Positions 38,876-55,381 of a DNA stretch of 64,000 nt are shown in pieces. Every line of letters begins with the position of its first letter. Within the stretch, counting starts at the first letter, position 1. The position numbers were made by a program, and so were the translations under genes. The notes beneath the pieces are model-generated. The model worked only from the letters and a program-made list of their open reading frames with translations. It did not search any database and had not been told where the DNA came from. Origin of the DNA: Acidobacteriota bacterium (GTDB lineage: Bacteria; Acidobacteriota; Terriglobia; Acidiferrales; UBA7541); the NCBI GenBank assembly GCA_003223245.1, contig QHYI01000105.1:7913-71912 (forward strand), given 5' to 3'.

Positions 38876-39230
38876 CCGGTCCTCTGACCCGCCGCGCGCT
38901 GTAGCCCGTCTTAGGCTTTAGGCCATGAGGATAACGGTCAAGGGGACATGTAAAATTTGTCCGTGCCCTACCGATGAACAGGATACTCCCCATATGGTTC
39001 TTCCTTTATCTCCTGTTTTTCCAGTAAGTTAGCAAAGAATGCGTCTTTGCCCCTGTACTTACCCTGTGGACAAAACCGTACGGTGGAACAGGCTCTAGTA
39101 CTTCTGCCCTATTCGTCTTTGTAACCGACTGACTATCTGTCGGAACAGCCTCGGCCGGCATCATTTCCTCGTTCGAACAATAGAACGTGTCGCTAGCAAC
39201 CGTCCCACGAAACATCACAAGGAGCCCGTG

Positions 39231-39794
39231 ATGACCCTTGTTCGTCGAGCGAACCGCCTAGCTAGCCAACATGGTTTCTCCATGGTGGAGTTGATAATTG
39301 CCCTGGGAGTCGTCGCAGTGGTGCTGGCAAGTTCCCTGCCCATGGTGTTCAGGTCGCAACGCGCCTACCGGCTCATGAACGACACCCGAGCCATCGCCGA
39401 CCAACTCACACTGGCGCGCGTGCGAGCCGCCAGCGAGTTCACCCAAACAAGACTTAATTTCAATTTGGCTAATGGCAGTTATCAGCTTCAGCTCTGGGAC
39501 AAGGCCACCAATAGCTTTGATATCACCGAAGGCGGGAGGCAGTACCTCTCCGGCTCTACCAATTTTAGCATTGGCACCGTTGGCACCCCTGCGGGCAGCC
39601 AAACCACTATCCAGGAAAGTCCCCAGATCATTTTCAACTCAAGAGGCATCGCCGTCGACAACACGGGAGCGGCTACCGGGAACTACGCTATCTATCTGTC
39701 CGATAACCAAAGCCAATACTCTGCGGTCAGTGTTTCGGCAGGCGGCAAGGTCAGCATCTGGCGGTGGAAAGGTTCGAGCTGGCAGGGCTATTAA
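39231..39794 (+). CDS. GspH/FimT-like minor (pseudo)pilin
   Basis: It has the prepilin N-terminal methylation motif QHGFSMVELIIALGVVAVV. The RBS is AAGGAG. Confidence 0.75.
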   Translation: MTLVRRANRLASQHGFSMVELIIALGVVAVVLASSLPMVFRSQRAYRLMNDTRAIADQLTLARVRAASEFTQTRLNFNLANGSYQLQLWDKATNSFDITEGGRQYLSGSTNFSIGTVGTPAGSQTTIQESPQIIFNSRGIAVDNTGAATGNYAIYLSDNQSQYSAVSVSAGGKVSIWRWKGSSWQGY

Positions 39795-39835
39795 ATCTCT
39801 TACCAAATCTTTTGGAAGCAACGAGGCGAACTTTC

Positions 39836-40384
39836 ATGTGCGATTGCGTTGGCGGCAAATCAAAGCGCGGGGCCAAAGCACAGGCGGGATTCTCGATCCT
39901 GGAAACGATGATCTCTGCGGTAATCCTGCTGGTCGGGGTTGTGCCCGTTATGGCGTTATTTGGAATCGCTGCGGGACAGAACAAAAAGCAAGGTGACATC
40001 GCTACCCGAACGATCGAGTACTCGCAGGACAAAATGGAGCAGTTGCTCTCCTTGGATTTCAACGATGGCTCGACCAATACCGCCATCTTCCCCGCTAGCG
40101 CGACGGGTGGTACGGGACTTGGCGGGGCCATGGCGGCGAGCAGCACGGTTGGGGGTAGCAATCCTGCCGCGCCCGTCGCCGGGTATGTGGACTATCTCGA
40201 CTCCAATGGAAACCTGTTGACCAGTCCGACCGGCGCTTTTTATACGCGCGTTTGGGGCATCTCCACGGATGCCACAGGAAACATCAAGACTGTTCAGGTA
40301 GTGACCGCCGCGGTCTCGTCCTTAGCGGCAGGCGGCCCTGCGCCAACGATGACCTTGGTCGGCGCCAAGGGCTTTGGTCACTAA
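39836..40384 (+). CDS. PilV-like minor pilin
   Basis: It has the prepilin motif AGFSILETMISAVILLVGV. Confidence 0.7.
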   Translation: MCDCVGGKSKRGAKAQAGFSILETMISAVILLVGVVPVMALFGIAAGQNKKQGDIATRTIEYSQDKMEQLLSLDFNDGSTNTAIFPASATGGTGLGGAMAASSTVGGSNPAAPVAGYVDYLDSNGNLLTSPTGAFYTRVWGISTDATGNIKTVQVVTAAVSSLAAGGPAPTMTLVGAKGFGH

Positions 40385-40402
40385 AAAGGAAGGGTGTTTG
40401 AG

Positions 40403-41281
40403 ATGACCAAGAGCAAGAGCCAAGGATTTTCACTCCTAGAGCTGATGGTTAGCATCGCGGTGCTGGTCACCATCTGTGGCGCGCTGTTTTCCGCCTTATT
40501 CGCTTATCAAAAGACCTACGCGTCGGAAATGCTGAAAGCCGATATGCGCCTGGGAGTGCAGGGCGCCGCAGAAACCTTGGCTCAGGAAATCGGCCAGGCT
40601 GGCGCCGTGCCGCCTACCACCACCACGCTTACGGGGAGCATCACGGCAAGCGCGCTGGCCCAAAGCGCTAGCGTAATCTCAACCGCAAATATGTTTGCTG
40701 GCGAAACCTTGCAAGTCGACCAGGGCCCCACTTATGAGACCGTCAAAATCGCCAGCGTATCCAGCTCCACAACCATCAGTGCCATCTTCAACAGCAATCA
40801 CGCCGCGGGAGCTCTGGTTTGGGCTAGCGGCGTCTTTCCCCAAGGCATCCTTAGTTCTTCGACGGCCAACGTGTTACAGCTTTTTGGAGATATCAACAGC
40901 GACGGAACCCTGGCCTACGAAGAGTATAGGTGCGACATGACAGCGGGAACGCTCACGCGGTCCATTACGCCTGTCGGAGCCGGCGAAAGGAATGCCGCCG
41001 TGGTGGTCCTTCAAGGAGTTATCGCAAATCCAGGCGGGACACCGTGCTTTACCTATGCCGCTCCTGTGTCTGCGGCAGGCTTCAACTTCATCACCAACGT
41101 GGGGTTCACCGTGACGACTCAAACCTCGGACCCCGACCCACAGACTGGCCAATATGCCACGATGACCAAATCTTTCTTGGATCTCGCGCCGCGGAACGTC
41201 AAGGCCGGCTTGGCTCTGGCGCAAGGCGGCTACACCGCCCCATTGCAGGCCACGCCTCCGGGCCTGCCCATGAGTCCATGA
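40403..41281 (+). CDS. PilW-like minor pilin
   Basis: It has the prepilin motif QGFSLLELMVSIAVLV. Confidence 0.7.
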   Translation: MTKSKSQGFSLLELMVSIAVLVTICGALFSALFAYQKTYASEMLKADMRLGVQGAAETLAQEIGQAGAVPPTTTTLTGSITASALAQSASVISTANMFAGETLQVDQGPTYETVKIASVSSSTTISAIFNSNHAAGALVWASGVFPQGILSSSTANVLQLFGDINSDGTLAYEEYRCDMTAGTLTRSITPVGAGERNAAVVVLQGVIANPGGTPCFTYAAPVSAAGFNFITNVGFTVTTQTSDPDPQTGQYATMTKSFLDLAPRNVKAGLALAQGGYTAPLQATPPGLPMSP

Positions 41282-41315
41282 GAATCGTTTGTTTGGAGGA
41301 AAAGGGCGAGGCTTC

Positions 41316-42758
41316 ATGAAAACGACCACAGTCAAAAGGAACAACGAACAGGGCATAGGGCTGCTGGTTGCCTTAATGACCCTCATGCTGCTCTCCACGA
41401 TGGTCGCGGGCCTGCTCATGGTGACCAATACGCAGCTCTGGACTACCTTGAATCACCGGCTGGCGACTCAGGCCCGCTACGCGGCCGAATATGGCGCTCA
41501 GCGGGCAGCCGTATGGATCGCTAACACCGATCTCAAGATGAACGACACTACCGGCCTCAACACCGGGGTTTATCCGGTCCAGCTTACCGCCGACAATCAG
41601 GCCGTGGTCCTGTCCGCGATGTCCGCTGTGACTGCGAACTATCCCGATTCCTCAGTTCGGACCGGCTTCAATACGGCGCTCTCCAATCAACCCGTCCCGG
41701 GATTGACAAATTTCAAGTATTCGACGTATGCCACCTTGGTGTCTATGACTCCAGCTGCGGCCGCTGGAACCGCTATGTACCAGCAGACGTGGCAGATTAC
41801 CTCGCAAGCCAGTATCGTGGGCCTGCGCAACGCCCAAGTTCAAGTCGTCGAGAACATCCAGCGCATGGTGGGCGTACCGCTGTTCCAATATGCGATCCAA
41901 AGCACAGGCAACGGCTGCGGCGCCCTCACCCTTGCGGGCGGCGCCAGCACCGACAGCTATGATTCATCTGCCGGAACCTATGCCTCGACCAATACGGCTG
42001 CCGGTGGAAACATCGAAGCCAATGGCAACGTCAGCCTCAGCGGCAGTAGCACAGAGGTGGAAGGAAATCTCTACGACCCGAATCCGACCGGAACAAGCTG
42101 CAGTTCGGGTAGCGTCGATGCCCTTACCGTCGGTGGCGGCGCCAGTGTGACAGGAAGCGTTACTACGATAGGCGCCCCTTTGACCGTTCCAACGCCGCCC
42201 GCGCCAAGTCCCGTCCCGCCGACAACGAATGAACCTTTTACTGGCAACTGCGGCGGCGGAGCCGGGTGTACGAATCTGTCGGCCGATAACCTGGCGCTTG
42301 CCCCGGGAACGTATGGAAACATCAGTGCCAGCGGCGGCACTTCCCTGCACCTTTCTGCGGGCACCTATAATCTGAACAGTCTCACGCTCAGCGGCGGAAG
42401 CTCCCTGGTCATCGACTCAGGCCCAGTCATTGTCAACATCGGGGGTGCAGGCATACGCGCACCAATTACCTTTAGCGGTGGCAGCATAACTAACAATAGC
42501 GGGCTCGCCGCAAACCTCCAGATTAATTACGGGGGAACCGGTGCCGTGGATCTGTCCGGAGGAGCGGCGAGCTATGCATTGGTCGACGCTCCCAACGCAG
42601 CGATCACTTTCAGCGGCGGCTCGAATTGGTATGGGTCGGTCATCGGCAAAACCGTGAACGACAGTGGCGGCACTGCCGTCCACTTTGACCGCAGCCTCCT
42701 TGTCACCATCACCAATGGCAAATTCCAGATCGTCGGATTCAACTGGAGCAAATTCTAA
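41316..42758 (+). CDS. PilX-N-domain protein with a large Gly/Ser/Thr-rich repetitive C-terminal domain
   Basis: The N-terminus is NEQGIGLLVALMTLMLLSTMVAGLLMV...ARYAAEYGAQ. The C-terminal ~300 aa carry repeated GGxS/T...xxSGG units, which look beta-helix-like. Confidence 0.7.
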   Translation: MKTTTVKRNNEQGIGLLVALMTLMLLSTMVAGLLMVTNTQLWTTLNHRLATQARYAAEYGAQRAAVWIANTDLKMNDTTGLNTGVYPVQLTADNQAVVLSAMSAVTANYPDSSVRTGFNTALSNQPVPGLTNFKYSTYATLVSMTPAAAAGTAMYQQTWQITSQASIVGLRNAQVQVVENIQRMVGVPLFQYAIQSTGNGCGALTLAGGASTDSYDSSAGTYASTNTAAGGNIEANGNVSLSGSSTEVEGNLYDPNPTGTSCSSGSVDALTVGGGASVTGSVTTIGAPLTVPTPPAPSPVPPTTNEPFTGNCGGGAGCTNLSADNLALAPGTYGNISASGGTSLHLSAGTYNLNSLTLSGGSSLVIDSGPVIVNIGGAGIRAPITFSGGSITNNSGLAANLQINYGGTGAVDLSGGAASYALVDAPNAAITFSGGSNWYGSVIGKTVNDSGGTAVHFDRSLLVTITNGKFQIVGFNWSKF

Positions 42759-42794: not shown

Positions 42795-43160
42795 ATGAGG
42801 ACAAGACGAGAATTGCAGGAAACCCCAGTCTATGTCGCCTCGGCATGGTGGAGAAATTGCGAACCGTTTGTAACCATCGTCGGCGGGAGCCAGAAAGCCG
42901 TGGAAACGACCATTCAGGCCGTGATGCTTCAAACGGCAACCGACGCCTATAACGAACAGGGGAGCAAAAAACGCGAGCGCGATGACTTCCTGCTGGACAT
43001 GGCTCGGTCGTTTGCCAAACGCGATACGCTTGGCAACGTCTTCCCTGCCCATGTTCTTGAGAACTATTGCAGCGAGAAGTTGCTGCGTCATCGCTACCTG
43101 GACTATCAAAACTTCCACTCTTTAGTGAACGGCGACCCAAACGCCATAGTCCGTTTCTGA
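42795..43160 (+). CDS. Hypothetical protein
   Basis: 121-aa ORF with GGAGGGG upstream. I recognised no family. Confidence 0.45.
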   Translation: MRTRRELQETPVYVASAWWRNCEPFVTIVGGSQKAVETTIQAVMLQTATDAYNEQGSKKRERDDFLLDMARSFAKRDTLGNVFPAHVLENYCSEKLLRHRYLDYQNFHSLVNGDPNAIVRF

Positions 43161-43168
43161 GCGCAGCT

Positions 43169-44092
43169 ATGTTCCATCCTTCAAATCCCCCGAAGCCGCA
43201 GGCGGAGATGTACGAAAAACAGTTCCGGCTCTACCTTCTCCGCTTGGACCTGATCAGCGCGGTGTCCTGGTGGCTAAGCGCTCTCGCCGCCGTTTTGATT
43301 CTGGTGGCTTTTCTCGCCTTGCTCTTTCCAGGGCTGCTTGTCTATCTCCTCCCGCGTGGTTGGGACTCCACTTCACCGCTCGCGATCCTTCTCACGGTAC
43401 TCTTGCTTTCCCAAGCCTTCACGCTCTATCAGGGACACCAGTTCAAACTCTTTCGGCATCGCCTCGCCGCTCAGATGGACGCCGCTGAGAAACAACGCAT
43501 GCGCGCGGATACTTTTTACGGCATGTCCATCATCGATCCCCTCACCGGCCTCCACAACCGCCGTTTCGGGGAAGAGCGCTTGAAGGATGAGGTTGCTCGA
43601 GCGGAAAGGAAGAACCAGAACTTGGCCGTGATCGCCATCGATCTCGACAACTTCAAGCCCATCAACGATCAATTCGGACACGCCGCCGGAGACTTGGTTT
43701 TGAAGGAGTTCGCGCGCCGCCTCCGACGGGCCATCCGCCCCTGTGATGTTCCCGTGCGCCTCGGCGGAGACGAGTTCCTGATCCTTCTTCCGGAATGCTC
43801 CACCGAGAATGTTGACATCATCTTCTCCCGCCTGCACCCCTTTGAGGTTACGGTGAACCGCCAAAAGGTGCCTGTTTGTTTTTCGCGGGGACGTGCCCAA
43901 TACCAGATCGGCGACAAGCCGGAAACACTGGTCGCGCGCGCCGACGAGCGCCTGTACGCCGATAAGCAGGCGCGGAAGAATCCACGTCCGTCCGAAGACG
44001 GCGCCTACGGACCGGAAGAACTGTCATCCGGCGTCATTCATGCAGAAACGCGGGACAGGTGTGCCGCGCTAAGCGGCAGTCTGGAGGATTAA
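43169..44092 (+). CDS. Membrane-anchored diguanylate cyclase (GGDEF)
   Basis: Two TM segments are followed by DPLTGLHNRR...IDLDNFKPINDQFGHAAGD...RLGGDEFLILL. Confidence 0.9.
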   Translation: MFHPSNPPKPQAEMYEKQFRLYLLRLDLISAVSWWLSALAAVLILVAFLALLFPGLLVYLLPRGWDSTSPLAILLTVLLLSQAFTLYQGHQFKLFRHRLAAQMDAAEKQRMRADTFYGMSIIDPLTGLHNRRFGEERLKDEVARAERKNQNLAVIAIDLDNFKPINDQFGHAAGDLVLKEFARRLRRAIRPCDVPVRLGGDEFLILLPECSTENVDIIFSRLHPFEVTVNRQKVPVCFSRGRAQYQIGDKPETLVARADERLYADKQARKNPRPSEDGAYGPEELSSGVIHAETRDRCAALSGSLED

Positions 44093-44252: not shown

Positions 44253-44720
44253 CTAGTTTTTTGCCCAGCGCTGGCGAATTCCGGCGAGGAATTTCTGCTT
44301 ATCCTTCTGCATGAGCCGGATGAGCGCCCGATTTTCCGTCTTCTCGTGCTTCCCCGCCCATAGCACCATTTCTGTCAGCACGGGAGCCAGATCGATTCCT
44401 TTTCGCGTGAGCGAGTAAATGAGCTTTCGGCCATCGGAGAGATGCCGCTCTGCGCGGAGGATTCCGTACGCTTCCAGCTTGCGCAGCCGGTCGGTTAATA
44501 TGTTCGTCGCGATTCCTTCGTAGGATCCGAGGAACTCCTTGAACGTGCGCGACCCAAATAACATCGCGTCCCGGATAATCAACAGCGACCACCGATCGCC
44601 CAGCATCTCCACCGAAGCATTCAGCGGGCAGCCGGACCGCCACTTTGGATTGGCCTTTCTCTTTGCCACTTTTTCACGGTAGCAATTATCACTTGCATTT
44701 TGCAAGTGACTTTTACACAC
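44253..44720 (-). CDS. HxlR-family transcriptional regulator
   Basis: CPLNASVEMLGDRWSLLIIRD...ATNILTDRLRKLEAYGIL. The ORF-track GTG at 44720 would place the palindrome inside the CDS. A GTG at 44669 is a plausible real start. Confidence 0.85.
   Translation of the reverse strand: MCKSHLQNASDNCYREKVAKRKANPKWRSGCPLNASVEMLGDRWSLLIIRDAMLFGSRTFKEFLGSYEGIATNILTDRLRKLEAYGILRAERHLSDGRKLIYSLTRKGIDLAPVLTEMVLWAGKHEKTENRALIRLMQKDKQKFLAGIRQRWAKN
44689..44709. promoter_or_regulatory. Perfect 9-3-9 palindrome, a candidate HxlR operator in the hxlR/doxX divergent region
   Basis: TCACTTGCA-TTT-TGCAAGTGA, read directly from the sequence. Confidence 0.5.
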
Positions 44721-44762
44721 TAACCGAACCAGCGCCCGTTACAAATCCGGAGGGAGAATCTC

Positions 44763-45209
44763 ATGAGCTCAAACGTTCCACCGGCCTCGCAAGGAGCGGC
44801 GCCCGTTGAACGACCTTCTGTTTCAGCGCGCGGCGCACTGTGGACCGGACGTATCCTCACTGCTCTCGCGGTATTGTTTCTGCTCTTCGACGGCATTACG
44901 AAAGTGATGAGAGTTCCCGCCGTGCTCAAAGCAAGCGCTCAGCTTGGCCTTTCGGACAAGCTCATCGTCGCGATCGGCGTTACCCTGCTCTTGTGCACCG
45001 GCCTTTATGTGATTCCGCGCACTGCGGTCCTCGGCGCAGTATTTCTGACCGGCTATCTCGGCGGCGCAGTCTCCATTCAACTGCGCGTCGGAAATCCGCT
45101 CTTCAGTGAAACATTGTTCCCGGTGTATTTTGGCGTGCTGGTGTGGCTCGGCCTGTATCTCCGCGAAAGCCGCTTGCGCGCGCTGGTTCCGTTGCGAAGG
45201 TTGATTTGA
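44763..45209 (+). CDS. DoxX-family membrane protein
   Basis: 148 aa with four hydrophobic segments, including [19 protein letters not shown]. Confidence 0.7.
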
Positions 45210-45268
45210 TTCCGGTTCGCGTCCTTGGTAGAAAAGAAAGCTTGAAAAAAAACAGAAAGGAGCATTTG

Positions 45269-46456
45269 ATGAGCGGAGTACGCGTATTGGTTGGCACACG
45301 CAAGGGTGCATTCATCCTCACTTCGGACGGCAAGCGCCAGAAATGGGACGTAAGCGGCCCGCATTTTGCCGGTTGGGAGATCTATCACATGAAAGGGTCG
45401 CCCGCGAGTCCCAATCGCATTTACGCATCGCAGACGAGCGGCTGGTTCGGCCAGATCATTCAGCGCTCCGATGACGGCGGCAAGACCTGGATTCAACCGG
45501 GCACGCCGCCGGGCGAACCGACCACCGGTCCGGGGGGAATGCCCAAAGGCGAAAGCAACAAATTTGTGTACGACACCTCCGCGGAAACCGGCAAGCCTCT
45601 TACCACGCATCAGTGGTACGACGGCACGCAGCATCCGTGGGAATTCAAGCGCGTGTGGCATCTTGAGCCTTCGCTCAGCGAACCGGAGGTGGTCTACGCA
45701 GGCGTCGAAGACGCCGCCATCTTCCGCTCGAAAGACGGAGGCAAGTCCTGGCAGGAGTTGTCTGGGCTTCGCGGCCACGGCACGGGTCCGAAGTGGCAGC
45801 CTGGCGCCGGCGGCATGTGCTTGCACACCATCGTTGTCGACCCCCGCAATCCCAGGCGCATTGTCATCGCCATCTCCGCTGCAGGGGCGTTTCGTACCGA
45901 CGATGGCGGCAAAACCTGGAAGCCCATCAACAAAGGGCTGCACTCGCAATACATCCCGAATCCGACCGCCGAAATCGGCCATTGCGTTCATCACATTGCC
46001 ATGAGCCGCAAGCGTCCCAACACCCTTTTCATGCAAAAGCATTGGGACGTCATGCGCAGCGACGACGGGGGCGACAACTGGAAAGAAGTCAGCGGCAATT
46101 TGCCCACCGATTTCGGCTTCGTCATCGATGTTCACACCCACGAGCCCGAAACTATCTACGTCGTTCCCATCAAGAGCGACGGCGAACACTTCCCTCCCGA
46201 CGGAAAGTTGCGCGTGTATCGCAGCCGCACTGGCGGAAACGAGTGGGAAGCCCTCACGAAAGGCCTCCCGCAGAAAGATTGTTACGTCAACGTGCTGCGC
46301 GACGCGATGGCCGTCGACTCGCTCGACAAATGCGGCATCTATTTCGGCACCACCGGCGGACAGGTGTACTGCTCGGCCGATGCCGGAGACAATTGGACAC
46401 CCATCGTGCACGACCTCCCGGCGGTGCTCTCCGTCGAGGTCCAAACTCTGTCATGA
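45269..46456 (+). CDS. Cytoplasmic BNR/Asp-box beta-propeller protein (sialidase-like fold, function unknown)
   Basis: There is no signal peptide. Asp-boxes are [32 protein letters not shown] and SADAGDNW. The RBS is AAAGGAG. Confidence 0.8.
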
Positions 46457-46770
46457 CCGCAGTTCCATCGGGGAAAATTCGCGTCATCCTCCCCCCGCAT
46501 TTGCGAGGATTGGCGCATGTCAAGGGGGAGGTTCTTCTCCAGGTCGCGGGCACGCCGTCGGTGCGCTCGGTGCTCGACGCGCTCGAAGCTGCTTATCCGA
46601 TGCTTCGGGGCACGATTCGCGACCACGTCACACAGCAGCGACGGCCGTTCTTGCGCTTCTTCGCGTGCGAGGAAGATCTTTCTCACGAATCGCCGGACAC
46701 TCCGTTGCCTGAGGCGGTCGTCTCGGGCAAGGAGCCTCTGCTCATCCTCGGCGCCATTGCCGGTGGCTAG
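46453..46770 (+). CDS. ThiS/MoaD-like ubiquitin-fold protein ending in Gly-Gly
   Basis: 105 aa, [21 protein letters not shown]...[13 protein letters not shown]...[10 protein letters not shown]-stop. Its ATG overlaps the propeller stop (ATGA). Confidence 0.7.
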
Positions 46771-47621: not shown

Positions 47622-47888
47622 ATGTGCCGCAACATCCGAACACTTTTCAATTTCGATCCGCCGGTCACGCCGGAGGAGGTTCGCGCGGCTTCCTTGCAGT
47701 TCGTGCGGAAAATCACCGGCTTCCATCACCCGTCGAAAGCCAACGAAGCTGCGTTCAACGCCGCCATTGACGACATCGCCCGCGCCTCGACGCGCCTGCT
47801 CCATTCCCTGGAAACCACCGCGCCCCGTCGCAATCGCGAGGCCCAAGCCGCCAAAGCTCGAGCCCGCGCGGCAGCCCGCTTCGCATGA
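47622..47888 (+). CDS. DUF2277-family protein
   Basis: MCRNIRTLFNFDPPVTPEEVRAASLQFVRKITGFHHPSKANEAAFNAAIDDIA. The family is recalled from memory. Confidence 0.7.
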   Translation: MCRNIRTLFNFDPPVTPEEVRAASLQFVRKITGFHHPSKANEAAFNAAIDDIARASTRLLHSLETTAPRRNREAQAAKARARAAARFA

Positions 47889-48276: not shown

Positions 48277-49230
48277 CTAGGCGGAGCTGCCAGAAGAGCG
48301 CGGGGCTTTCTCGAGGGCATGGCGATCCCAGTGGGCGAGTTGCGCGCCGGCTTCGTAGGTGGACTGACAAAAGTCGAGTAGCGCCGCACTAGGAGACAAA
48401 GCGCGGCGGACCTCGTGGTACATCACGATAAACTCGTTGAGCTGCCCGTGGTAGAACGCGGCGTCCGGGCGAATGCGGGATTCGCGGAAGCCCGGCGGCT
48501 CGGGAGCCATGTAGGAATAGAAGGCTGGTCCATCAAGGCCGCTTCCCGGCCAAAAGCCAACGCTGCTGACTTCGTGGGAATAAGCTTCTCGGGTAATGGA
48601 ATCCGCGCCAGAGCGCTCCGGGGCGCGACGGCCCGAAAAGCGCGTGACGGCAAGATCGAAGCTGCCCCAGAAGAAATGTACGGGGCTCGACTTACCGACG
48701 AAGCGAGAGCGGAACTCCTGAAAGACACGGTCCACGGAGACGAGGATTTGCCAGAACCTGCTGGCATATTCGGGATCGTAAGAGGTGTGCACGCGATCCT
48801 GGTCAAAGGGCATGGGGTCAGGGATTTCCACGGGCATTCTCCAAATCCTGACCCCGATTGCGGCCGAACGAAGCATACCGAGAAAGTCTTGATAAAAGTC
48901 CGCGACCGAGCGGGGAGAGAGCGGAATAGATTTGACCTGGCCTGTGTTGGTTTGCAGCACCAACTCGTGATTGAGGAAATCGAAGCGCAGTTCAAAAGTG
49001 AAGTGCGCGTAAGGAATCGCAGTGGTCGTGAGGCCACGCGCAGAAACATAGAGAGGAACGTTCCACCAGTGGTTCAACCTGGGTGTGAGCGCGAGTCGAA
49101 CCTTGCCAACGATTTGCGTCCACATGTGCAGCGTGGCGTAGGTGTCCTTCCAGGCTGCAAGCGGGAGAGACGGCCAGCACTCCGCCATGTCGCTCATGGC
49201 GGTGCTCGGGGATTGGTTGGTGTCGAGCAT
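48277..49230 (-). CDS. DUF5996-like protein
   Basis: CWPSLPLAAWKDTYATLHMWTQIVGKVRLALTP...VHFFWGSFDLAVTRFSG. The start is uncertain (49230, 49197 or 49188). The 439-aa ORF-track form is over-extended. Confidence 0.65.
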   Translation of the reverse strand: MLDTNQSPSTAMSDMAECWPSLPLAAWKDTYATLHMWTQIVGKVRLALTPRLNHWWNVPLYVSARGLTTTAIPYAHFTFELRFDFLNHELVLQTNTGQVKSIPLSPRSVADFYQDFLGMLRSAAIGVRIWRMPVEIPDPMPFDQDRVHTSYDPEYASRFWQILVSVDRVFQEFRSRFVGKSSPVHFFWGSFDLAVTRFSGRRAPERSGADSITREAYSHEVSSVGFWPGSGLDGPAFYSYMAPEPPGFRESRIRPDAAFYHGQLNEFIVMYHEVRRALSPSAALLDFCQSTYEAGAQLAHWDRHALEKAPRSSGSSA

Positions 49231-49397
49231 GACGATAACCCTCAGCCCACCAGCGGCTACAAACTGTGCTACGGGCTGAGCGCGCATTGGTGCGTAGATT
49301 AACGCAAAAGACGCCGCTTGCAAATCGCGCCTGGTGGAAGTGGCAGTCTTTCGAACGTGGGCGTAGACTGCGGCGATGGCGACGTAAGGAGGTCCAA

Positions 49398-50330
49398 ATG
49401 TCATTACGGCCGGTGAAGAGGTTGATACGGGCGAAGCCGACGATCGAAGGCGCGGGAGTACACCTGCGGCGGGCGTTTGGCTTCGGCAATACGAAGGAGT
49501 TCGATCCGTTCCTGCTGCTGGACGATTTTCGCAATGACGTGCCGGCGGACTACCTGGCGGGCTTTCCGTGGCACCCCCACCGCGGCATCGAAACAATTAC
49601 GTATGTGCTTTCCGGCACCGTGGAACACGGAGACAGCATGGGCAATCGCGGGACGATCGCCGCAGGCGACGTCCAGTGGATGACCGCAGGAAGTGGGATC
49701 ATCCACCAGGAGATGCCGAAGGGCGACCACGCCGGGCGCATGCACGGATTCCAATTGTGGGCGAACCTCCCGTCGGCGTTGAAGATGACCGCGCCGCGCT
49801 ATCAGGAAGTGAAAGCGGGGGAAATTCCTGCGATTACGGACAACGACGGGACGCAGGTGCGCGTGGTGTGCGGGAAGTTCTGGGGCAAAACAGGACCGGT
49901 AGAGGGCATTGCAGCGGACCCCATCTACATTGACGTGAGCGTGCCGCCAGGGCGGCGGAAGACGCTGCCGGTCGAAGTGACGCGGCACGCCTTCGCATAC
50001 GTGTTCGCGGGCGCGGGAAAGTTCTGCAATGCGTCGGAACCGCTCGAGGTTCCGACGGAGCCGGTGGGCTGGCTGGAGACTACTCCGCCGCCCTCGGAGG
50101 CGGACAATCGCTCGCTCGTGCTGTTTGACCGTGGCGATGAGTTGATGGTGCAGGCGGGGGAGGAAGGCATACGCTTCCTGCTGGTGTCGGGCAAGCCGCT
50201 TGAAGAGCCAGTGGCGTGGTACGGGCCGATTGTGATGAATACGCAGGAGCAGTTACGCGAGGCGTTCCGCGAGCTGGAGCAAGGCACGTTCTTGAAGGCG
50301 CAGAAGAAAACTAGAGCGAGCGTCGAATAG
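49398..50330 (+). CDS. Pirin-family protein
   Basis: GFPWHPHRGIETITYVLSGTVEHGDSMGN...VQWMTAGSGIIHQEMP. The RBS is TAAGGAGG. Confidence 0.9.
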   Translation: MSLRPVKRLIRAKPTIEGAGVHLRRAFGFGNTKEFDPFLLLDDFRNDVPADYLAGFPWHPHRGIETITYVLSGTVEHGDSMGNRGTIAAGDVQWMTAGSGIIHQEMPKGDHAGRMHGFQLWANLPSALKMTAPRYQEVKAGEIPAITDNDGTQVRVVCGKFWGKTGPVEGIAADPIYIDVSVPPGRRKTLPVEVTRHAFAYVFAGAGKFCNASEPLEVPTEPVGWLETTPPPSEADNRSLVLFDRGDELMVQAGEEGIRFLLVSGKPLEEPVAWYGPIVMNTQEQLREAFRELEQGTFLKAQKKTRASVE

Positions 50331-50589: not shown

Positions 50590-52071
50590 ATGAAAGCTGT
50601 CGCTTTCAAGCTGCGCTTCCCGTGTTTTCGTGTGTTTGCCGTTCTGTCCACCATTCTTTTTGCAATGACCATGGGCTTTCTTCTGGCACGAGGGCAGTCG
50701 CCCGCGCTTCCCGCGATTAAAGTTGTCAACCTGATTCCCGCGAGCCTGAGCGGCGAAAGTAATCAGGACAGCGAACCCTTCCTGGCGATTCAAAAAGACA
50801 ATCCGCAAGTGATGGTGGCTTCCGCGTTCACGCCTAATCCGTTTTCGATGACCGCGAACGCTCCGGTGTACGTTTCGCAGGACAGCGGAAACAGCTGGGT
50901 GCTCAATGCCATCACTCCGGTGCAACGCATGACCTGCGACATCACTCACGCGATGGCGACCGGAGAGAATCATCCGCGTGGCGACCTGCACGCAGGCACC
51001 CTCGCATGCGCGTCGGGCATCACTCTGGATGAATCGGAATCGGTGGACGTTTCGTCAAGCGCTACGATGAATGTGCAATCCACGCGCGGCAACGTAGATC
51101 AGCCGTTTGTGCGCGCGCTGGGCGTCTCGAGCGGCGACCGCATTTATGTTGGAGTGAATGACTTCAATCGGGCGAACGGGCAGACCGCCACGGTGGATGT
51201 GTCGGTGGACGGCGGCGCGACCTACAGATCAATCCCTATCGAAATGCGCAAGACGGCGGGCCAGGACGGCCCATCGGTCCGGCCGGCGGTGGCCAACGAC
51301 GGAACGGTTTACGTGGCATTTTTCGGCTGGCGCAAATTTGATGGCAAGACCGCTACCAGCGACGTGGTGGTGGTGCGCGACGATGCGGCGGCAACGGGCG
51401 CGAATCCTTTTCACGCGCTCAGCAATCCTTCGGATAAGCTGCCCGGGCGCGTAGTGGTGAAGAATGCTTCAATTCCATGGTCCAATGCGCCGGCGTTAGG
51501 ACAGGAACGCATTGGTTCAACGCTTTCTATAGCCGTGGACCCGAATCAAAGCGCGATCGTGTATCTGGCCTGGGCCGACAAAGGGAGCAAAGCAGACATC
51601 TACACATTGCACGTGAGGAATTCGGCGGACCGGGGCGTCACGTGGTCGAAGACGGATTTGCCGGGCACCACCATTCACAATGCCACGAATGTCGCACTGG
51701 CGATCGCCGACAACGGTGCGGTGGGATACCTTTATCAGCAGCTAAGCGGCGGGCGATGGGTCACGCATCTGGTGCAAACTCACAACGCGTTTGCTACATC
51801 ACAGGAATTTGTGCTGGCGACGGTTCCGGCGGATCAGCCCGTGGGGCAGTTTCTGCCTTATCTGGGCGACTATGATTATTTGTTGTCTGTGGGGAATGAA
51901 TTTCGCGGGGTTTTTTGCGCGAACAACACGCCGGATTTCGCGAATTTCCCGCAGGGCGTGACGTTTCAGCGGGCGGCGGACTTTAGCGCCAAGACGCTCA
52001 ACGATGGCGCAGGCAACCTCGTGCCCATTTCCATCGATCCATTCTATTTTAGTGTTCCGGTGATCCCATGA
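50590..52071 (+). CDS. Secreted BNR/Asp-box-containing protein
   Basis: It has a signal/anchor FRVFAVLSTILFAMTMGFLLA. Asp-box-like motifs are SQDSGNSW, SVDGGATY and SADRGVTW. Confidence 0.7.
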   Translation: MKAVAFKLRFPCFRVFAVLSTILFAMTMGFLLARGQSPALPAIKVVNLIPASLSGESNQDSEPFLAIQKDNPQVMVASAFTPNPFSMTANAPVYVSQDSGNSWVLNAITPVQRMTCDITHAMATGENHPRGDLHAGTLACASGITLDESESVDVSSSATMNVQSTRGNVDQPFVRALGVSSGDRIYVGVNDFNRANGQTATVDVSVDGGATYRSIPIEMRKTAGQDGPSVRPAVANDGTVYVAFFGWRKFDGKTATSDVVVVRDDAAATGANPFHALSNPSDKLPGRVVVKNASIPWSNAPALGQERIGSTLSIAVDPNQSAIVYLAWADKGSKADIYTLHVRNSADRGVTWSKTDLPGTTIHNATNVALAIADNGAVGYLYQQLSGGRWVTHLVQTHNAFATSQEFVLATVPADQPVGQFLPYLGDYDYLLSVGNEFRGVFCANNTPDFANFPQGVTFQRAADFSAKTLNDGAGNLVPISIDPFYFSVPVIP

Positions 52072-52127
52072 GGGGTTGCGCCGATATGCGCGACAAATGC
52101 CTGAACGCGAGGGCAAAGGGGGTCTTT

Positions 52128-52994
52128 ATGAGGATTTCGTCAGTGTTTGTCGCAGGCCGTTTATGGGCGGCCGCTCTACTGCTGGCTTTGTGCGGATGCA
52201 CGACCGCTGCGACCCCACAAGCTATGGCCAACCAGGCCGCATTAATGGGTAGATCGAGCATCGTCTTTTCAGGCACAGTGAGCCAACTTGCGGCCACTTC
52301 TTTTGCGGACGTGCCGAAATCGGCTCAGACGATTGTGGTGCGCGTGGATTCGATCGTAAAGAAACCTGCGGCGGTGTCGTTGAAAAAAGGGGATAGCGTC
52401 ACAGTGAAAGTGAAAGACACGTCCGCGTTCCAGGAAGGCCAGCAAGCTACCTTTTATACCGATGGCTGGATTTTTGGCTCCGGCGTAGCGGTCATAGAAG
52501 TGGGGCATGTGCTCGGTGAAGCTGCTCCGGCGGCAAGGGCGCAGGAGAAACCGCAGGGGCCGGAGCAAATCAGCGATCAGGAATTGCGCGAGCGTATGAA
52601 CGCCTCGGATTTTGTCGTGGTCGGGCGCGTCACCGACGTTCATAAGTGGAACCCTCCCAAAGCGAAGTCGGGCGCGCCTCTGCATGTAACGGAACATGAG
52701 CCGGATTGGCATGAAGCGGTGGTGCAAGTTGAGTCGGTCCTGAAGGGCGGACAAGTCAAGGGAAAGAAAGTGGTTGTGCGATTTCCGAATCGCAACGATG
52801 TGGCATGGGCGAACTCGCCAAAGTTCACGAAAAATCAGAGAGGCATTTTCTGTTTGAACCGGGATAAAGCTACCGGCGCCCCGTACACGGAGCTGGGAGG
52901 CAAACAAGTGAATGTGTACACTTGCCTGGGGCATGGGGACGCGCTGCCGATTTCGGAAGAAGCCCGCGTGCGAGCGCTGCTGAAGAACCAGTAG
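52128..52994 (+). CDS. Lipoprotein with two internally repeated ~110-aa modules
   Basis: It has the lipobox LLLALCGC. The two modules are IVFSGTVSQL...VVRVDSIVKK and FVVVGRVTDV...VVQVESVLKG. Confidence 0.6.
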   Translation: MRISSVFVAGRLWAAALLLALCGCTTAATPQAMANQAALMGRSSIVFSGTVSQLAATSFADVPKSAQTIVVRVDSIVKKPAAVSLKKGDSVTVKVKDTSAFQEGQQATFYTDGWIFGSGVAVIEVGHVLGEAAPAARAQEKPQGPEQISDQELRERMNASDFVVVGRVTDVHKWNPPKAKSGAPLHVTEHEPDWHEAVVQVESVLKGGQVKGKKVVVRFPNRNDVAWANSPKFTKNQRGIFCLNRDKATGAPYTELGGKQVNVYTCLGHGDALPISEEARVRALLKNQ

Positions 52995-54467: not shown

Positions 54468-54506
54468 AAAAAAAAACAAAAGGCCGCGCGCCGCGCTCAG
54501 CGCGCA
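54468..54506 (-). terminator. Intrinsic terminator of the rhodanese gene
   Basis: On the minus strand, a GC-rich hairpin (GCGCGCTGAGCGCGGCGCGCGGCC) spans the stop codon and is followed by TTTTGTTTTTTTTT. Confidence 0.6.
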
Positions 54507-55381
54507 TTGGCGGCCACGCCGGATTGCGCGGAACGCGACTCGTTCACAATAGGCGCGCCCACCAGATTGCCCCATTCGGTCCAGGAACCGTCGTAATTGC
54601 GCACCTTGTCGAAGCCCAGCAAATACTTGAGCACGAACCAGGTGTGCGAACTGCGCTCGCCGATGCGGCAGTAGGCAATCACTTCATCCTTGCCATTGAT
54701 GCCTTTGGCTTCGTACAGCTTCTTCAAATCGTCGACGGATTTGAAGGTGCCGTCTTCGTTGGCGGCCTGCGCCCAGGGAATATTGGCGGCTTTGGGAATG
54801 TGGCCGGCGCGCTGGGCGGTTTCGGTCATGCCCGGAGGCGCGATGATCTTGCCGGTGAATTCGTCAACGGAACGAACATCGACGAGTTGCCCGGACTTGC
54901 GACCTTCCAATACGGCCGAAACATCTTCCTTGAAAGCGCGGATGGAAGCATCTGTCGCGGCAACGCGATACGTTGTTGGAGAGATGTGGGGAACGTCCTT
55001 GGTGACCGGGCGCTTCTCTTCCAGCCATTTCTTGCGGCCGCCATTAATGAGGCGGACGTCCTTGTGGCCATAAAGCTTCAATTGCCAGAAGGCGTACGCC
55101 GCGAACCAGTTGTTGTTGTCGCCGTAAAGAATGACCGCGGTGTCGTTCGATATGCCGGAAGCGCCGAGCAGCTTCTCGAGCGCGGCCTTATCGATCAGGT
55201 CCCGGCGGATGCCGTCCTGGAGCTGGGTTTGCCAGTTCCAGCCAACGGCCCCAGGGATGTGCCCTTGGTCGTACGCGGTCGTGTCCACGTCTACTTCGAC
55301 AAAGCGCGTGTTCGGCGCCTTGAGATTTTGTTCGGCCCATGCGGTCGAGACCAGAACTTCCGGATGTTTGTACTCTGCCAT
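54497..55381 (-). CDS. sseA: Thiosulfate/3-mercaptopyruvate sulfurtransferase (tandem rhodanese)
   Basis: 294 aa with QGHIPGAV and the active-site loop CRIGERSSHTW. Confidence 0.9.
   Translation of the reverse strand: MAEYKHPEVLVSTAWAEQNLKAPNTRFVEVDVDTTAYDQGHIPGAVGWNWQTQLQDGIRRDLIDKAALEKLLGASGISNDTAVILYGDNNNWFAAYAFWQLKLYGHKDVRLINGGRKKWLEEKRPVTKDVPHISPTTYRVAATDASIRAFKEDVSAVLEGRKSGQLVDVRSVDEFTGKIIAPPGMTETAQRAGHIPKAANIPWAQAANEDGTFKSVDDLKKLYEAKGINGKDEVIAYCRIGERSSHTWFVLKYLLGFDKVRNYDGSWTEWGNLVGAPIVNESRSAQSGVAANAR

Follow-up and report, generated by a model that had tools for sequence, protein, structure and literature searches.

Pairing of a cytoplasmic Asp-box propeller with a Gly-Gly ubiquitin-fold protein in an acidobacterial operon and in other bacteria

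Which genes of a small acidobacterial operon belong together, and what might they do as a unit? The operon lies on contig QHYI01000105.1 of an Acidobacteriota bacterium, in a stretch of 64,000 nucleotides (nt) that is called the window throughout this text. An earlier sequence-only reading of this DNA had described an HxlR-type regulator divergent from three genes, which encode a DoxX membrane protein, a beta-propeller with five Asp-boxes and no signal peptide, and a small ubiquitin-like protein (Ubl) ending in Gly-Gly. It had further suggested that the propeller and the Ubl are a functional pair, which would then be expected to recur in other genomes. Pfam searches and reading of the open reading frames (ORFs) confirmed the gene arrangement (Table 1). 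The ATG of the Ubl overlaps the TGA of the propeller gene as ATGA (4 nt), the propeller start is preceded by AAAGGAG, and no terminator-like sites were predicted between the three plus-strand genes. As shown below, the conserved core of the locus is the pair of propeller and Ubl and not the set of four genes.

Pairing of propeller and Ubl across genomes

A scan of species-representative genomes with an alignment of six propeller sequences yielded 599 relatives, of which we examined the best 80 (79-88% identical). When one locus reached from the Ubl side is included, the Ubl was found downstream of the propeller and on the same strand in 72 of 81 loci, and two of the nine loci without a Ubl are cut off by contig ends. 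A larger close set, which also draws on 80 metagenome loci, is defined by a propeller identity of 70% or more; it comprises 135 loci, and 120 of them carry the Ubl. Spacing is tight in most of these 120 pairs, with the 4-nt overlap in 69 cases and a gap of -1 to 30 nt in another 13; other genes intervene in 21. The pairwise identities of the propellers and of the Ubls correlate with each other (r=0.55), and a search started from the Ubl side found a propeller adjacent in 11 of 11 places examined.

Distant clades were sampled through plasmid tblastn and a metagenome scan. In Ralstonia, Cupriavidus, Burkholderia, Paraburkholderia and Mitsuaria the order of the two genes is flipped: an 89-amino-acid (aa) Ubl ending in QAL(S/T)GG lies directly upstream of a propeller that is 30-34% identical to the window propeller, in genomic surroundings that are otherwise unrelated. 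An intermediate clade (roughly 40-50% identity) carries the Ubl up- or downstream in about 10 of 22 loci, typically with the tail PAVSGG. In one natural fusion, protein P0318, a ThiS domain ending in VSGG is joined by a 9-residue linker to the propeller; fusions of carrier and partner occur occasionally in sulfur-carrier systems (PMC1779556), and P0318 is their counterpart here. No Ubl was found near the propellers of Streptomyces, Fuscovulum and Rhodobacter (36-42% identity). Both proteins have thousands of relatives, and the propeller family comprises 1,391 clusters at 50% identity (E<1e-30). Because the pair is kept in 120 of the 135 close loci and reappears, with flipped order, in the Betaproteobacteria, its adjacency goes far beyond chance. 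The functional pair proposed from the window is thus upheld by recurrence, flipped order and fusion, and we are highly confident that propeller and Ubl work together. Their recurrence suggests an undescribed sulfur-carrier or protein-tagging system.

Further observations on the pair concern its distribution and its surroundings. Close-clade propellers are 79-88% identical across records labelled as distant phyla, among them the complete genome of Anaeromyxobacter oryzae and metagenome-assembled genomes (MAGs) labelled Nitrospira, Manganitrophaceae, Chthoniobacterales (Verrucomicrobiota), Tepidisphaeraceae (Planctomycetota) and Chloroflexota (e.g. loci L028, L039, L069, L018, L033 and L073). 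Such identity across phyla suggests either horizontal spread of the pair or an unusually strong constraint; some of the distant-phylum MAG labels may be binning errors. In several Acidobacteriota the genes that separate propeller and Ubl include AbrB-like and PIN/VapC-like toxin-antitoxin pairs; such separation is seen at about 11200-11900 in L021, at about 11265-12870 in L037 and in other loci with gaps above 200 nt. On the Ralstonia megaplasmid (L084/L176-L178, 1244-3767) the pair follows, on the same strand, hppD (4-hydroxyphenylpyruvate dioxygenase), a RidA-family gene and an MBL-fold hydrolase, and an Lrp/AsnC regulator is divergent from these genes. A gene for a DUF2277 protein recurs close to the pair (window 47622-47888, L154 7652-7948, L024 5208-5513, L018 11986-12309, and also L001, L102 and L172-L175); in L154 it is located 43 nt upstream of the propeller and in L024 35 nt downstream of the Ubl, and in the window and several Acidobacteriota the distance is a few kb at most. 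The propeller on the plasmid of Streptomyces sp. NBC_00184 (L082 6001-7089), which has no Ubl, itself ends in AATIGG, a possibly coincidental Gly-Gly. Finally, in the 704-aa protein P0264, alongside which P0334 was noted, a family propeller is joined to a Ser/Thr protein kinase domain, and no membrane segment is obvious. This suggests that sensing or binding in the cytoplasm is among the roles open to the propeller.

Folds and conserved positions of the two proteins

Sequence comparison places the Ubl poorly. The Ubls of the window clade and of the betaproteobacterial clade align at about 25% identity, and PDB sequence searches returned only a spurious EryAI match for the window Ubl alone and only SAMP1, at E=0.2, for a profile of both clades, so that a fold search was needed. 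The AlphaFold2 model of the window Ubl, calculated from the two-clade alignment, has a mean predicted local distance difference test score (pLDDT) of 80.4 and a disordered tail (pLDDT 47). Its top match in Foldseek is SAMP1 (3po0, template modelling (TM) scores 0.74/0.85), followed among others by HVO_2177 (2m19), Methanosarcina SAMP1 (2l52), CysO in complex with CysM (3dwg), MoaD (6jc0) and Urm1 (1wgk); the SAMP-type entry 4hro and a Urm1-Ahp1 complex are also among the fold neighbors. Homologues do pass the Pfam ThiS model (PF02597, cut-off 22.5), the Cupriavidus Ubl with a score of 27.4 and the fusion P0318 with 36.8. The sole family match of the Ubl itself is NCBIfam SAMP1 (NF041918), for which the betaproteobacterial Ubl reaches 45.5 bits (8e-12), below the cut-off of 60 bits. 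The sequence-only reading had called the window protein ThiS/MoaD-like: its AIAGG end and its overlap with the propeller stop were borne out, a direct Pfam ThiS match was lacking, and the ThiS/MoaD nature is instead assigned from the predicted fold and from the homologues that pass the ThiS model. Judged by its model, the Ubl is a divergent MoaD/SAMP1/CysO-type beta-grasp protein. At the C-terminus, 114 of 120 close Ubls terminate exactly in GG, and the tail G-A-(I/M/L/V)-A-G-G is nearly invariant.

The propeller contains five canonical Asp-boxes (S-x-D-x-G-x-x-W) and one degenerate box, SRTGGNEW, and has neither a hydrophobic N-terminus nor a signal peptide (maximum Kyte-Doolittle value 0.97). 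It belongs to the same family as PDB entry 3b7f (Reut_B4987 of Cupriavidus pinatubonensis JMP134, 'putative glycosyl hydrolase with BNR repeats'), with E=4.6e-67 and 33% identity by sequence and TM scores of 0.76/0.81 by fold; members of this family in Ralstonia, Cupriavidus metallidurans, Burkholderia, Paraburkholderia and Mitsuaria have the Ubl directly upstream. The AlphaFold2 model was calculated from an alignment of sequences with 85% identity or more and reached a pLDDT of 70, which suffices to assign the fold and not to judge site geometry; its strand pattern was read as seven four-stranded blades. A survey of Asp-box propellers counts seven blades and five Asp-boxes in 3b7f and gives the function as 'not known' (PMC2716378). 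Compared with 3b7f the window propeller has an insertion of roughly 40 residues (about residues 80-125). Sialidases of the PDB match it across one Asp-box only (E about 0.1), it misses the threshold of the sialidase-type BNR_2 model (22.2 vs 31.4), and the cut-off of the F510_1955 glycosylhydrolase model NF045728 (175 bits) is missed by both the window propeller (83.6) and the betaproteobacterial protein (54.2). The public name 'exo-alpha-sialidase' is without support, since both thresholds are missed.

Ten residues outside the Asp-boxes are invariant across clades, namely K12, W26, W130, H186, H241, Q256, H258, F282, G283 and R344. In the strand pattern of the model, W26 apart, they occupy from blade to blade either positions where the innermost strand begins or loops between second and third strands; the Asp-boxes are found in loops between third and fourth strands. 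Given these strand positions and the standard topology of propellers, the invariant residues probably ring the central channel on the face opposite to the Asp-boxes.

More distant fold neighbors of the propeller are GH74 xyloglucanases, the protein-binding DAIP, Ycf48 and sortilin, and several of these entries are titled as peptide or protein complexes (Ycf48 with a D1 peptide, sortilin with neurotensin and with a PGRN peptide, DAIP with a thermolysin fragment). Ycf48/HCF136 and the sortilin Vps10p domain share the Asp-box propeller fold and are a possible precedent for the binding of a Ubl tail. The peptides bound by Ycf48 and sortilin are C-terminal tails of their partners. In contrast to the propeller described here, these proteins act in other compartments and without a Ubl partner, and their fold similarity is limited to TM scores of about 0.4-0.6.

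Activation of the Ubl and readings of the pair

If the Gly-Gly tail is used chemically, an activating enzyme (E1) must be available. The sequence-only reading had noted that no E1, JAMM peptidase, molybdopterin or thiamine gene is nearby, and this held: a ThiF-type probe detected no E1-like ORF in the 64-kb window, and Pfam revealed no molybdopterin, thiamine or JAMM genes among ten flanking genes, JAMM having been covered here without a dedicated probe. The E1 probe was an E. coli ThiF sequence, and its negatives are only as good as this probe; both positives described below were verified with Pfam. No E1 or conjugating enzyme (E2) was present among neighbor clusters recurring in at least five loci or among the 25 families listed from 148 neighbors in 38 diverse loci. 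Known clients of sulfur carriers (MoaE, ThiG, CysM, TtuA) were likewise not matched by any recurrent neighbor cluster or by any of the 25 listed families. Two loci do carry an E1 gene next to the pair. In L133 the Ubl is followed, after 4 nt, by the gene of a 379-aa ThiF+rhodanese protein, which fits best to the MoeB model PRK07411 (7.7e-157) and to MoeZ (2.1e-150), both below the equivalog cut-offs, and passes the cut-off of the MoeB model PRK08762. In actinobacteria, MoaD and CysO are thiocarboxylated by E1 enzymes of this type. The second case is L064, where a ThiF-domain gene that is cut short by the contig end stops 12 nt ahead of the propeller. We regard these two adjacencies in about 170 loci as suggestive and not decisive. 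Together with the conserved terminal GG and the MoaD-like PAVSGG tail, the two in-operon E1 genes argue that the C-terminus probably undergoes real chemistry.

The reading that we prefer, tentatively and with chances we put slightly short of even, is that the Ubl is a sulfur carrier activated in trans and that the propeller is its client. The Gly-Gly end would be adenylated by a MoeB/MoeZ-type E1 encoded elsewhere in the genome and probably thiocarboxylated through the rhodanese domain of this enzyme. The propeller would be the dedicated partner of the Ubl and form a complex with it, with the flexible A-(I/L)-(A/S)-G-G tail docking on an invariant polar ring made up of K12, H186, H241, Q256, H258 and R344. 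In the weakest step of the scheme, the propeller might accept the activated tail as a sulfur donor, which would be analogous to MoaD-MoaE, ThiS-ThiG and CysO-CysM with a new partner fold. These known systems resemble the pair in that a small beta-grasp protein with a flexible Gly-Gly tail is encoded beside one dedicated partner, often with translational coupling. They also resemble it in that the activating MoeB, ThiF or MoeZ is usually encoded elsewhere and shared, and CysO and MoaD are among the fold matches of the Ubl. Unlike in these systems, the partner is a seven-bladed Asp-box propeller, which to our knowledge is not a client of any sulfur carrier, and no genes for cofactor, cysteine or thiamine synthesis were found near the pair. 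A Ubl sulfur carrier with its client is a known kind of system; new are the fold of the client and the context of a stress regulon.

A number of observations weigh against a sulfur carrier and its client. The window Ubl has no Pfam ThiS match at E<=0.1 and scores only 14.2 bits with the NCBIfam SAMP1 model, far from its cut-off. Six of the 120 close Ubls (L032, L041, L063, L068, L144 and L151) and several Ubls of the intermediate clade (L095, L098, L101 and L110) have residues beyond GG, with the ends GGRGL, GGCI, GGRK, GGAL, GGVC, GGQK and GGLRTT; these would require C-terminal processing if the GG is chemically used. In the fusion P0318 the GG is internal and not free. Only 2 of about 170 loci have a MoeB/MoeZ-type E1 next to the pair, and since MoeB/MoeZ belongs to the housekeeping genes both cases may be accidental. 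A JAMM-like gene was recognised neither in recurrent clusters nor among the 25 families listed in the neighbor scan nor in spot checks, none of which involved a direct JAMM probe, and no sulfur-metabolism genes were consistently linked to the pair. On the side of the propeller, no Cys is conserved across all clades, and the clades without a Ubl keep the same invariant site, so that the function of this site does not strictly depend on an adjacent Ubl.

A conserved propeller Cys as acceptor of a persulfide or acyl group was rejected as a candidate, as C239 of the window propeller is replaced by Asp in the betaproteobacterial clade and no other Cys is universal. Thiol-metabolism or ligase genes were noticed beside some distant members of the family. 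The ergothioneine genes egtB-egtD are divergent from a Rhodobacter propeller (L088 3589-5770), and a gene of the YbdK/GCS2 glutamate-cysteine-ligase family is located upstream of Ubl and propeller in L101 (1311-2441); such cases are too few to weigh. A glutamine-synthetase-family gene lies 62 nt upstream of the Fuscovulum propeller (L083 4542-5927).

Several of the points just listed would also be expected if the Ubl served the propeller as a structural or regulatory subunit that is bound non-covalently, comparable to TmoB of toluene monooxygenase or YukD, without chemistry at its C-terminus and with the GG as a mere docking element. Bacterial beta-grasp subunits that are not conjugated are documented (PMC1779556), and the internal GG of the fusion, the residues after GG in some Ubls, the scarcity of adjacent E1 genes and the site retained in Ubl-less propellers all fit such a role. 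It is difficult to reconcile with the near invariance of the last six residues and the terminal position of GG in all but six close Ubls, with the PAVSGG tail of the intermediate clade, which is the MoaD-type tail expected for recognition by an E1, and with the MoeB/MoeZ-type E1 found in the operon at two loci; we therefore regard a purely structural subunit as unlikely.

The Ubl could alternatively be a protein modifier in the manner of SAMP, Thermus TtuB or Urm1, conjugated to lysines after E1 activation, without E2 or ligase (E3) and possibly triggered by oxidant or electrophile stress, with the propeller as its main target or adaptor. The best structural neighbors of the Ubl (3po0, 4hro, 2l52, 2m19 and 1wgk) are indeed archaeal SAMP1/SAMP3-type proteins and Urm1, which double as sulfur carriers and E2/E3-independent modifiers and have the same GG terminus, SAMP1 is its only family match, and the Urm1-Ahp1 complex appears in the list. 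Urm1-Ahp1 has a link to stress. The stress-regulon context described below, the invariant Lys12 of the propeller, the related Asp-box propeller entries titled as peptide or protein complexes (Ycf48, sortilin, DAIP) and the binding or sensor role suggested by the kinase fusion P0264 point in the same direction. In contrast to SAMP1/SAMP3 and Urm1, the Ubl is bacterial, stays below the SAMP1 cut-off and is strictly paired 1:1 with one protein, and no UbaA-type E1 or JAMM was recognised in the neighborhood, where no direct JAMM probe was applied. E1, E2, JAMM and deubiquitinase genes are not consistently nearby, PADLOC gave no match, and 1:1 pairing, translational coupling and fusion are better explained by a stoichiometric complex than by a general modifier, which leaves this explanation rather improbable in our judgement. 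An anti-phage or ubiquitination-like Ubl system (Bil, CBASS Cap2-type, 6A/6E operons) was rejected separately: PADLOC-DB matched neither of the two Ubls, nor the propeller or the DoxX_2 protein, and no E2 or JAB was recognised among recurrent clusters or the 25 listed families.

Regulatory context, genes of the window and significance

In some loci, mostly acidobacterial ones, the pair is accompanied by a regulator of the HxlR family. The window HxlR (Pfam score 65.9 bits vs a cut-off of 20.8) most likely starts at a GTG at position 44669, as judged by its homologues and by the position of the operator, which gives a protein of about 138 aa and leaves a divergent region of 93 nt to DoxX_2; the mechanical ORF extends further upstream (Table 1). 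It has a single Cys (C14) within an RSGCP motif, and all 29 full-length homologues encoded beside the pair keep this N-terminal Cys. Its position is that of the sensing Cys in YodB-type regulators. Each of the 30 adjacent HxlR genes has a candidate operator core, ACTTGCA-N3-TGCAAGT (at most two mismatches), at a distance of 29-96 nt from its 5' end. Six loci that have no HxlR next to the pair carry the core 68-120 nt ahead of the propeller. In the scanned propeller-bearing loci the core was observed 37 times, compared to roughly 7 occurrences expected over the 2.25-Mb locus set by a hand calculation with equal base frequencies. HxlR genes are either divergent from the operon, as in the window, or co-directional upstream of the propeller.

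The HxlR control proposed by the sequence-only reading therefore stands in part: the operator conserved in 30 of 30 cases and the invariant sensor-type Cys support it for the window operon, while an HxlR gene is adjacent in only 30 of the 135 close loci, with one further case, L110, in the intermediate clade. By this distribution HxlR is a lineage-specific, mostly acidobacterial addition. The place of the DoxX protein in the module was not sustained. The window protein is a clear DoxX_2 member (67.4 bits vs a cut-off of 26.3) with several hydrophobic 19-residue windows, and homologues are found in only 6 of 135 close loci, which marks DoxX_2 as an occasional passenger and not a core member. 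The tandem rhodanese about 8 kb downstream, to which the same reading had drawn attention, is probably not relevant and was rejected as a partner, as a homologue occurs in 1 of 171 loci.

The families enriched among the 148 neighbors are VOC/glyoxalase, YCII, SRPBCC, DoxX_2, MFS and DinB/mycothiol-S-transferase. This picture is similar to the CatR/YodB-catDE quinone/catechol regulon of Bacillus subtilis (PMC6212828). In both, an HxlR-family regulator with a conserved N-terminal Cys adjoins an operon with a DoxX-type membrane protein, and loci related to the window add VOC/glyoxalase proteins. CatD is DoxX-like. In contrast to catDE, the cargo here includes the propeller-Ubl pair, and the operator sequence differs. 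On this model the acidobacterial pair and DoxX_2 would have been recruited into the regulon of a one-Cys HxlR-family protein that presumably binds ACTTGCA-N3-TGCAAGT and acts as a repressor. In such a regulon the expression of the pair would be expected to rise under stress, with quinones, electrophiles or thiol stress as putative inducers.

These counts also bear on two wider explanations. HxlR, DoxX_2, propeller, Ubl and rhodanese could form one obligate module for thiol/thiosulfate redox similar to mycobacterial DoxX-SseA, given that all components are present in the window and that HxlR, DoxX_2 and the pair occur together in L001, L004, L009, L131 and L162; the low frequencies of DoxX_2, HxlR and the rhodanese homologue largely refute this, the betaproteobacterial pairs have none of the three, and the window protein is Pfam DoxX_2 and not DoxX, so that we consider such a module very improbable. 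That a molybdenum-cofactor MoaD stands by chance beside a glycoside hydrolase or sialidase, as the public names 'MoaD/ThiS family protein', 'molybdopterin synthase sulfur carrier subunit' and 'exo-alpha-sialidase' imply, is hardly credible for a pairing kept down to 30% identity with coupling and fusion, without MoaE or cofactor genes among the 25 listed families (38 loci) or the ten window flanking genes, and with a cytoplasmic propeller that falls below the BNR_2 and F510_1955 thresholds and whose relative 3b7f is listed as 'function not known' (PMC2716378).

The features of the operon are compiled in Table 1. Among the ten flanking genes scanned with Pfam we identified GGDEF, DUF2277, DUF5996, pirin, tandem rhodanese and cytochrome b561 proteins. 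Upstream of the HxlR gene there are four ORFs on the same strand (39228-42758), of which the one scanned has DUF7305; next comes the gene of a GGDEF diguanylate cyclase whose N-terminus contains a membrane region (43067-44092). The ORFs of the DUF5996 protein and of pirin overlap as called (48277-49596 on the minus and 49266-50330 on the plus strand), and their true starts are probably shorter. Two plus-strand ORFs of 493 and 308 aa (50590-52994) have no Pfam match.

Table 1. Features of the propeller-Ubl locus in the 64-kb window
Feature	Position	Strand	Basis or location
HxlR-family (MarR/DUF24) winged-helix regulator	ORF 44253..44720, likely 44253..44669	-	Pfam HxlR E=3.1e-18
Candidate HxlR operator, perfect 9-3-9 palindrome TCACTTGCA-N3-TGCAAGTGA	44689..44709		HxlR/DoxX_2 divergent intergenic region
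DoxX_2 membrane protein, 148 aa, first plus-strand operon gene	44763..45209	+	Pfam DoxX_2 E=1.4e-18
Cytoplasmic seven-bladed Asp-box (BNR) beta-propeller, 395 aa	45269..46456	+	Pfam Sortilin-Vps10, BNR; PDB 3b7f
MoaD/SAMP1/CysO-like beta-grasp Ubl (predicted fold), 105 aa, ending GAIAGG	46453..46770	+	Fold model
Tandem rhodanese	54497..55381	-	Pfam

We found no literature describing the pair, and a survey of prokaryotic Ubl neighborhoods is silent on propellers, sialidases and Asp-boxes; the search was incomplete and is no proof of absence. PADLOC contains no model of the pair. ThiS/MoaD-type proteins are prokaryotic relatives of ubiquitin, and every known one works with its own defined client. 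In the present case the Gly-Gly Ubl is tied to a partner whose fold has not previously been linked to Ubl chemistry. The pair is spread over hundreds of bacterial species, with at least 599 species-representative genome stretches, and over many phyla, and it includes the tractable genera Burkholderia, Ralstonia, Cupriavidus and Anaeromyxobacter. It also bears on the misleading annotations 'exo-alpha-sialidase' and 'MoaD', and the conserved HxlR operator links it to electrophile and thiol-stress responses in soil Acidobacteriota, where regulation is little understood. For 3b7f, a crystal structure available since 2007 without a function, the pairing provides a direct hypothesis.

A possible, if doubtful, extension of this hypothesis is that the propeller represents a new class of client for an activated bacterial Ubl, either as an enzyme that uses the thiocarboxylate or as target or adaptor of a conjugation independent of E2 and E3. 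As an enzyme it would be the first beta-propeller to insert thiocarboxylate sulfur into a cytoplasmic metabolite, and possible products would be a thio-sugar or a low-molecular-weight thiol directed against quinone or electrophile stress. In the case of conjugation, a Urm1/SAMP-like reaction would be triggered by thiol stress. Either variant, if true, would explain what the orphan structure 3b7f does, and with it a family of more than 1,300 clusters at 50% identity.

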